Of a stretch of DNA of 64,000 nucleotides, positions 61,110 to 62,300 are shown piece after piece. How positions within the stretch are numbered: position 1 is the stretch's first letter; every line of letters begins with the position of its first letter. The notes under the pieces are model-generated. The model was not told the DNA's origin, searched no databases, and saw only the letters and a list, made by a program, of their open reading frames with translations. The stretch comes from a plasmid. Where the stretch lies: sequence record NZ_CP023785.1; one strand, 5' to 3'. Position numbers and translations under genes: made by a program.

Positions 61110-61410
61110 TTTATGATCGTGCCAAAGCAATCAAAAGAAAATTGCGAATCACTTAGATCGAAAGTTTACTCAAACAAAAGCATTGTCAGCGGTTGTCACG
61201 GATTTAACTTATGTTCGGGTCGGGACAAATTGGGCTTATATTTGTTTGATGATTGATTTATTCAATCGTGAAATTATTGGCCATTCTTGCGGAAATAAAA
61301 AAGATGCGCAGCTTGTAAAAAGGGCCATTCAAAGCATTCCTTACTCACTTCAAGAAATCGAACTCTTCCATACGGATCGTGGAAAAGAATTTGATAACCA
61401 AACCATTCAG
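61110..61410 (+). pseudogene. internal fragment of an IS3-family orfB (plus strand), ending at a palindromic junction
   Basis: ...VVTDLTYVRVGTNWAYICLMIDLFNREIIGHSCG...LFHTDRGKEFDNQTI. Confidence 0.65.
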
Positions 61411-61420
61411 AATCTCATGA

Positions 61421-62300
61421 ATGGTTTGGTTATCAAATTCCTTTCCACGGTCTGTATGAAAAAGCTTGACGTCTGTTAAAGAATACGGTATCCGTCCAAA
61501 GGCTTCTTTTACCAATGAGGCATCTTTCTTCTCACCACAGGAATAACCAATAATTTCTCGATTAAACAAATCAAGTATTAAGCAGATATAATGCCACTTT
61601 TTCCCCACGCGAACATAAGTAAGATCCGTAACGATGGCTTCCAATGGCTGTTCTTGTGTAAAGGTCCGATCTAATACATTCGCTGTTTTCGCTTCATTAC
61701 AAGCTGTTCGTTGCCCTTTAAAATGAGCGATCGTATAGGTAGATGTCAATCCGCGGCGTTTCATGATTCGACCGATTCGGCGCCGACTGAGTTGAAGCCC
61801 ACGCTTTGCTAAACACTTCTTCAATTTTCGGGTACCGTAAGCCTTTCGGTTTCGCTTGATAATAGTAGGTCTGACGAGAAATATTTAGAATTTTGCACAT
61901 CGCTGATATGGAATATTTATGCTTGTTGGCATCAATTACTTGTCTTTTCGTCCGAATATCAGCGCCGCTTGCTTTAAAATATCATTCTCCATTTCGAGTT
62001 GCTTATTTTTCTTTCTTAGTGCGATCAATTCTGCTTGTTCTGGTGTTAAGTTGTCTCTTTTTTTGAATGAGCCCGTTGATTGTGCTTGCTTCATCCATTT
62101 ATCGAAAGAAGAAGGCGTAAGCTCATACTCTCGAATAATTTCTGCGCGAGGCTTACCAGCGAGATAGAGATTGACGATTTGTTGTTTGAATTCTTTTGAA
62201 TAGGTTCTTCGTTGACGTCTTGACATGAAAAATCCTCCAGTGTGTTTTTTATTATTCTACACACCTTATTTTTTCTGTCTAGTCTAGTGTAGCCGATTCA
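61421..62300 (-). mobile_element. third, diverged IS3-family element (3-prime truncated at palindrome); OrfA 61936..62226 intact, OrfB frameshifted/truncated (61345..61900)
   Basis: The left end ...TGTAGCCGATTCA is at ~62300. OrfA is ~75% identical to copies 1 and 2. OrfB N-terminal pieces lie in two frames. Confidence 0.7.

Follow-up and report, generated by a model that had tools for sequence, protein, structure and literature searches.

Close to the right end of a 64,000-nucleotide (nt) stretch of plasmid DNA (sequence record NZ_CP023785.1; this whole stretch is called the window below), carried by a hospital Enterococcus faecium, two remnants of IS3-family insertion sequences (ISs) lie in opposite orientations and are joined within their transposase genes. 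The right-hand remnant is ISEfa8 and the left-hand one belongs to a relative for which we use our own name, ISX, as it is known only from this locus. Where they meet the DNA forms a palindrome, which seems best accounted for as a non-functional rearrangement scar, inherited on E. faecium plasmids and reached in four steps, an explanation to which we would give a probability of about 0.7. The features from which the argument is built are as follows, with the strand given where it matters.

61129-61397, plus strand: ISX remnant, 93 codons of the rve/DDE core from the interior of orfB, cut at both ends in the window
61183-61479, plus strand: read-through open reading frame (ORF) from the ISX orfB fragment into antisense ISEfa8, a by-product of the join and no gene
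61345-61824, minus strand: truncated ISEfa8 orfB frame that crosses the centre into antisense ISX, a pseudogene
61366-61370: left TTCCA direct repeat, the start of a 77-base-pair (bp) centre deletion in about 18 other plasmids
61387-61409: left arm of the perfect 23-bp repeat, with 61387-61397 from ISX, 61398-61399 apparently templated and 61400-61409 from ISEfa8
61398-61399: junction dinucleotide CC, in neither parent at this register, the complement of the GG that the opposite arm has at 61428-61429
61400-62300, minus strand: truncated ISEfa8 (IS3 family), sense nt 1-957 minus nt 447-502, with the left inverted repeat TGAATCGGCTACAC... ending at 62300
61410-61417: 8-nt loop GAATCTCA, native ISEfa8 sequence (minus-strand HEIL codons) that is identical in canonical ISEfa8
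61418-61440: right arm of the perfect 23-bp repeat, native ISEfa8 sequence
61443-61447: right TTCCA direct repeat, the end of the 77-bp centre deletion in other plasmids
61846-61854: sole surviving copy of the 9-bp direct repeat TCGGTTTCG, marking a 56-bp slipped-strand deletion within ISEfa8
61936-62226, minus strand: ISEfa8 orfA, 96 amino acids, HTH_Tnp_1, intact
62301-62340: 3'-end fragment of an IS256-family transposase gene, the presumed ISEfa8 insertion target, whose first 13 bp TGTAGACATCATC are kept in the empty site and lost in the window

The perfect inverted repeat is 23 bp long, GAATTTGATAACCAAACCATTCA at 61387-61409 and TGAATGGTTTGGTTATCAAATTC at 61418-61440 with the 8-nt loop between; the original prediction, made from the letters of the window, had seen this repeat, although as one of 22 bp and with coordinates (61389-61442) that are 2 nt too high. 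A repeat finder places the 23 bp in the middle of a gap-free imperfect palindrome, 61129-61409 and 61418-61698, and alignment of its 281-nt arms gives matches at 203 of 281 positions, that is 72% complementarity, the longest perfect runs being the 23 nt at the centre and then 11, 11 and 8 nt. The 78 mismatches are split 43, 23 and 12 over codon positions 3, 1 and 2, and the peptides encoded by the arms are identical at 67 of 93 residues, so the arms are diverged homologues (E = 3e-83 when one arm is compared with the other by BLAST) whose differences are in part non-synonymous, and not synonymous as had been proposed. Folded as single-stranded DNA the central 78 nt reach −32.6 kcal/mol (z = −11), and the whole 570 nt reach −122.9 kcal/mol (z = −12.9). 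The palindrome centre is read through on both strands, as had been predicted, with the plus-strand frame 61183-61479 yielding ...LFHTDRGKEFDNQTIQNLMNGLVIKF... and the minus-strand frame 61345-61824 yielding ...LFHTDRGKEFDNQTIHEILNGLVIKF..., and the Pfam rve integrase core domain is recognised in each arm. Since the truncated orfB frames converge on the centre, the arrangement is tail-to-tail, where a head-to-head one had been described.

The right arm is ISEfa8: between 62300 and 61400, where the match stops exactly, it is 99.3-99.8% identical to annotated copies (99.8% over 455 nt and 99.3% over 455 nt of NZ_CP020485.1, in which the coding sequence is annotated as 'IS3-like element ISEfa8 family transposase'). 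A complete ISEfa8 measures 1366 bp, TGAATCGGCTACAC...GTGTTGCCATTCCA, and the window copy shares with it an intact orfA (PF01527, E = 5.6e-11), the 5' part of orfB (PF00665, rve, E = 2.7e-13, the match ending at the junction) and the left terminal inverted repeat. It differs in lacking the last 409 bp, so that the DDE domain is short of its C-terminal third and the right inverted repeat (...GTGTTGCCATTCCA) is gone; of the 5'-TG...CA-3' terminal repeat pair the left member is present in 61400-62300 and the right is absent, and canonical ISEfa8 OrfB goes on beyond the truncation as ...HEILNGFGITRSLSRKGCPYDN.... Also missing, close to where orfA and orfB overlap, are the 56 bp of sense nt 447-502, a deletion between two copies of TCGGTTTCG (window 61846-61854; L001 6855-6903). 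With the right-end 409 bp and the 56 bp around the overlap gone, the remnant at 61400-62300 is unable to transpose. At four other positions the window ISEfa8 differs from the canonical copy L002.

Judged by its sequence the left arm is an IS3-family element other than ISEfa8. It matches PF00665 (rve, E = 7.3e-14), and over the arm ISX and ISEfa8 are 72% identical in nucleotides and identical at 67 of 93 amino acids, which with the near-perfect right-hand match upholds the earlier view of two distinct IS3 relatives, inverted and joined within a conserved orfB segment. Left of 61129 the similarity to ISEfa8 breaks off abruptly, which shows ISX to be truncated on its 5' side too. Among 72,556 plasmids searched by distant blastn and tblastn there was no full-length ISX parent closer than ISEfa8 itself (72% in nucleotides, 69% in amino acids).

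What ISX looks like beyond the junction is seen in three plasmids that have the same flanks without ISEfa8, NZ_LR135227.1 (L004), NZ_CP033207.1 (L007) and NZ_CP046076.1 (L008). In these empty-site alleles ISX reads ...GAATTTGATAA|TGAATTGATTG... and continues for 430 bp to ...GTGTTGCCATTCCA. The ISX of L004 is interrupted by a separate 1366-bp IS3 element, flanked by a clean 3-bp target duplication ACT at the equivalent of window 61362-61364; with that element removed it reads ...GGAAAAGAATTTGATAA|TGAATTGATTGATC..., followed by a frameshifted pseudogene of 430 bp to the right end ...AAAAGTGTTGCCATTCCA. The ISX right end in L004, ...TTGTCTAGAAAAGTGTTGCCATTCCA, is an IS3-type terminal repeat close to that of ISEfa8, and its terminal 14 nt equal the terminal 14 nt of the ISEfa8 right end. 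The 1366-bp element that interrupts ISX in the empty-site plasmids (transposase WP_086956687.1, 73% nucleotide identity to ISEfa8) is present in the window as two full-length copies, 99.9% identical, at 39574-40939 and 55717-57082, both on the minus strand.

Beyond the ISX right end L004 has the 13 bp TGTAGACATCATC and then immediately the sequence of window 62301 onward. The 13 bp and 62301-62327 together make one contiguous 40-nt stretch that is 100% identical in other plasmids (NZ_LR135294.1, for example), where it is part of the 3' end of an IS256-family transposase gene; L004 has all 40 nt (5113-5152) and the window 27. As other IS256-family copies have the 40 nt unbroken, the L004 type of empty site is the older, uninterrupted state. 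ISX, and later it would seem ISEfa8, sit inside the remnant of an IS256-family element, which makes at least three nested IS layers. When the 3' part of ISX was compared with the plasmids only three records matched, all of them empty sites, and a complete ISEfa8 at 13-16 bp from the right end of a complete ISX 3' part was found in none of the plasmids, species-representative genomes or JGI metagenomes. The exact pattern GCCATTCCATGTAGACATC gave two chance matches in genome contigs (one in Dehalococcoidia, one in an Acidobacteriaceae metagenome-assembled genome) and none in metagenome contigs, and the pattern TGTAGACATCN{0,8}TGGAATGGCAACAC had no match in metagenome contigs.

A three-way alignment of the window with ISX (from L004) and canonical ISEfa8 (from L002) resolves the junction base by base. 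The window equals ISX up to 61397 (...GATAA) and equals canonical ISEfa8 from 61400 (AAACCATTCA...). Past 61397 ISX in L004 proceeds as TGAATTGATTG..., and at 61398-61399 ISX has TG and ISEfa8 has CA, or equivalently one extra A in CCAAAACC, the canonical run being A4 in CCAAAACC as against the three-A form CCAAACCATTCA. Canonical ISEfa8 has a hairpin of its own at this site, AAACCATTCA, 8 nt and TGAATGGTTT, with a perfect stem of 10 bp, or one of 12 bp if a single bulged A is allowed (arms CCAAAACCATTCA-N8-TGAATGGTTTGG). In the window the stem has gone from 10 to 23 bp, with the CC at 61398-61399 paired to the GG at 61428-61429, and the 78-nt stretch that folds at −10.6 kcal/mol in canonical ISEfa8 folds at −32.6 here. 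Position 61386 carries the ISX variant (GGAAAAG) and not the ISEfa8 variant (GGAAAGG), so any template switch would be confined to 61387-61399. As a null model 5000 random deletion junctions were drawn between the reconstructed parent elements, and the perfect stems spanning these junctions had a mode of 4 bp and were at longest 15 bp, against the 23 bp observed. The in-register join is not chance, since none of the 5000 random junctions had a stem above 15 bp. A simple deletion between direct repeats was considered and rejected, as the parents joined at a shared A or AA give GATAAAACCATTCA where GATAACCAAACCATTCA is observed.

The palindrome is a real structure, passed on with large plasmids of E. 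faecium. Window 61000-62400 has matches in 310 plasmid records, of which 303 belong to Enterococcus; in 89 the match takes in 80% or more of the interval in one place, and dozens are 100% identical across all 1401 nt. The 141-bp palindrome centre is intact and 100% identical in 78 complete E. faecium plasmid records. The carrier plasmids are about 130-290 kb in size and come from many countries and laboratories, and those whose typing was examined are of rep_cluster_893.

Two deletions have since altered the locus, and their order can be read from the alleles. The 56 bp lost from the window are still present in CP014450.1, in three other palindrome-bearing plasmids and in canonical ISEfa8 copies, and as CP014450.1 has the palindrome without the 56-bp deletion, the junction came first. 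The 77-bp deletion, by which the whole 23-bp hairpin is lost, is seen as ...GAACTCTTCCACGGTCTG... in plasmids L003 (Netherlands), L005 (Germany) and L006 (Norway); these have the 56-bp deletion as well, making the 77-bp loss the latest step. It occurs in about 18 of about 96 locus-bearing plasmids (96 records cover a deletion-spanning query and 78 have the intact centre), and when sorted into tblastn identity bands 21 records fall at 99% or above (the 18 plus the three empty sites) and 74 in the read-through band. All of the 77-bp deletion copies inspected have the same breakpoints, and the deletion may be a single inherited event. Hairpins stimulate slipped-strand deletion between short direct repeats, and long perfect palindromes are inviable or cleaved by SbcCD in E. 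coli. Long near-perfect arms are absent at this locus, where perfection is confined to 23 bp, the 281-nt arms otherwise match at 72% and the next runs are 11 nt. The fragile site that had been suggested is therefore seen faintly at most: the palindrome has been deleted at least once, as the shared 77-bp loss in some 18 plasmids testifies, but it does not seem markedly unstable, given that 78 plasmids keep the centre unchanged and that the arms have diverged outside the core.

How then was the junction made? That ISEfa8 inserted beside ISX and that the centre was subsequently deleted seems highly probable as an overall history; that a single fold-back event made the junction is also probable, with rather more room for doubt. 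The first of the four steps is visible in the empty-site alleles, in which a 5'-truncated ISX runs up to its own right inverted repeat (...GTGTTGCCATTCCA) and abuts the IS256-family fragment. In the second step ISEfa8 would have inserted, inverted relative to ISX, 13 bp past the ISX right end, which put the right ends of both elements face to face, a reconstruction drawn from the empty site and from the exact ISEfa8 left terminus at 62300, which points to arrival by transposition. The resulting intermediate would be a quasi-palindrome of about 700 bp with arms 68% identical. IS3-family transposases bind the terminal repeats, and targeted insertion beside end-like sequences has been described for IS911 (work cited in PMC7986276 and PMC2909936). 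The ISEfa8 transposase may likewise have been drawn to the ISX end, the terminal 14 nt being identical in the two right ends.

The third step, as read from the junction sequence, would be one templated event that removed about 855 bp at the centre, with ISX losing 430 bp and ISEfa8 409 bp, along with the 13 bp between them and any target duplication. Template switching at quasi-palindromes (the Ripley model) makes them more perfect, as worked out with thyA and lacZ reporters in E. coli (PMC7202029). Here a strand copying ISEfa8 in the sense direction would reach ...TGAATGGTTT, fold back on its own AAACCATTCA and, with its own upstream stretch as template, add no less than GG (which appears as CC on the plus strand) and no more than GGTTATCAAATTC. 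The new 3' end TTATCAAATTC could then re-anneal on the identical 11-nt GAATTTGATAA, the homologous ISX codons (EFDN) lying some 850 nt ahead, and synthesis would resume there. Such an event would turn the 10-bp hairpin into the perfect 23-bp hairpin with in-register 72% arms, reproducing all 54 nt, and a mirror-image route that began in ISX would lead to the same product. A fold-back template switch would account for the truncation of both elements at one and the same codon, for which an untemplated deletion would need luck. The fourth step is observed directly, namely the 56-bp deletion between the 9-bp repeats in ISEfa8 and, in a sub-lineage later, loss of the 77-bp centre between the 5-bp repeats. 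An origin by template switching or illegitimate recombination had been put forward in the original prediction, and the empty-site allele (L004, L007 and L008) together with the base-by-base account of the junction bears this out.

Several points weigh against this explanation. The templated signature consists of one or two informative bases, the C at 61398 being present in canonical ISEfa8 also, and the same sequence would come about if the CCAAAACC run lost an A or if 61399 changed from A to C; it is as compatible with two steps as with a single event. A template switch during replication and snap-back synthesis in break repair are indistinguishable from sequence. As the intermediate was not found, the insertion of ISEfa8 stays a reconstruction; the deletion took the ISEfa8 flank on the right-end side, and one copy of any target duplication with it, and an IS911-like targeting of ISEfa8 is a plausible analogy.

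The first of these points leads to the alternative that survives best, which seems unlikely and in which the junction arose in two unrelated steps, a blunt untemplated end joining of ISX at 61397 to ISEfa8 at 61398 and either slippage by 1 nt within the A4 run or a substitution of C for A at 61399. With the C at 61398 common to canonical ISEfa8, just one base or one homopolymer A has to change, −1 frameshifts are common in A-runs, and the window ISEfa8 does differ from L002 at its four other positions. However the ISX breakpoint would have to hit by chance the one nucleotide that extends the hairpin in register, which none of the 5000 random junctions came close to, the extra mutation would have to adjoin the junction and perfect the stem, and the blunt 61397/61398 join has no microhomology. 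The second change might on this account be a later quasi-palindrome correction.

Quite improbable, and more so than the two-step join, is an aberrant transposition in which ISEfa8 was never complete at this site, a copy of it having folded back at the internal hairpin during copy-out and been integrated, or captured beside ISX, when already truncated. In its favour ISEfa8 ends at 62300 precisely with its left terminus, the right-end termini are identical over 14 nt, and IS3-family elements move via a replicated circular intermediate (PMC2909936). Paste-in however requires both ends abutted in the circle, for which a copy without its right end is no substrate; the join to ISX is within orfB, away from any IS end, and the 13 bp of target sequence that are missing fit a later deletion better. 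Homologous or homeologous recombination between two inverted IS3 copies has very little in its favour beyond the homology of the arms and a crossover placed in their longest identical stretch, since inverted repeats would invert the intervening DNA and leave full-length chimeras rather than a tail-to-tail truncated pair, and here 409 bp and 430 bp are missing from a product that is palindromic. Inversion by recombination between inverted copies was set aside for the wrong topology of its product, and an IS dimer or a junction of terminal inverted repeats was set aside as the junction is internal to orfB. Least credible of all is an assembly or library artefact from a chimeric or fold-back read, a known class to which palindromic junctions belong and which the original prediction had named as its own possible undoing, for the same sequence recurs in 78 complete assemblies from many laboratories and countries on plasmids of varied size and context, ancestral and derived alleles of the locus also occur, and a fold-back would produce identical arms and not arms at 72%.

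The locus stands among other insertion sequences. ISEf1 (IS256-like) lies at 59546-60883 with 29-bp terminal repeats. Its right flank, from 60884 onward, is the start of a hypothetical protein gene (WP_002287879.1) that is intact in L004 and of which the window retains about 97 bp (60884-60980). On the left the flanking DNA has no relation to L004, and no matching 8-bp duplication is present. These mismatched flanks and the missing duplication indicate that ISEf1 marks a rearrangement or deletion boundary. Just upstream of ISEf1 a second IS256-family transposase gene is found on the minus strand at 57576-58919 (447 amino acids, Pfam Transposase_mut, E = 4e-102), bringing the IS elements or remnants in the last 9 kb of the window to at least five. 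The pantothenate genes panD, panC and panB (62428-64000, minus strand) adjoin the IS cluster. They have 28-33% G+C content and a strong negative GC skew, against 36-41% in the IS remnants, a contrast that suggests a block of cargo genes from another source, with insertion sequences on either side.

There is no sign of function at the junction, neither IS remnant being mobile and the read-through ORFs being pseudogenes, for which annotation as transposases is inappropriate; no new system or function is revealed by the locus. Its value lies elsewhere, in that three states (before the event, after it, and with a secondary deletion) survive in one plasmid population and allow a base-by-base reconstruction. 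It would seem that a 10-bp hairpin in a transposase gene can give rise to the loss of about 850 bp between IS copies that are inverted and diverged. As lineage markers of these E. faecium plasmids one could use the alleles of the locus (empty site, intact centre, 77-bp deletion, with or without the 56-bp deletion). As a tentative and rather doubtful generalisation, short hairpins in IS3-family transposase genes could commonly act as switch points from which a nascent strand jumps between diverged inverted IS copies, so that abutted or nested insertion sequences collapse into small quasi-palindromic scars. If that were so, the locus would be a natural series from empty site to palindromic junction to centre deletion, and would illustrate an undescribed route of IS decay on multi-IS resistance plasmids.

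Set beside known systems, the junction resembles the outcome of quasi-palindrome template switching, in that a pre-existing imperfect inverted repeat has become a longer perfect one and the new bases complement the opposite arm. The classic events change a few bases in place, whereas here the strand would have landed about 850 nt off, on a diverged inverted copy and with a large deletion. Central deletions of palindromes and hairpin-stimulated slippage offer a second likeness, as the junction event and the 77-bp loss between TTCCA repeats each removed the centre of a quasi-palindrome, although the arms here are 68-72% identical outside the 23-bp core. The reconstructed position of ISEfa8, 13 bp from an ISX right end whose terminal 14 nt equal its own, resembles IS911 targeted insertion, from which it differs in being a single event known from sequence alone. 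IS dimers and circle junctions of the IS3, IS30 and IS21 families likewise have two IS copies in a symmetric arrangement; these however join terminal repeats across a 2-4 bp spacer and are active, whereas here the join is inside orfB, has no termini and is inert. The locus is in sum an undescribed instance of known processes and parts, namely ISEfa8, an IS3-family remnant, quasi-palindrome switching and slipped-strand deletion.

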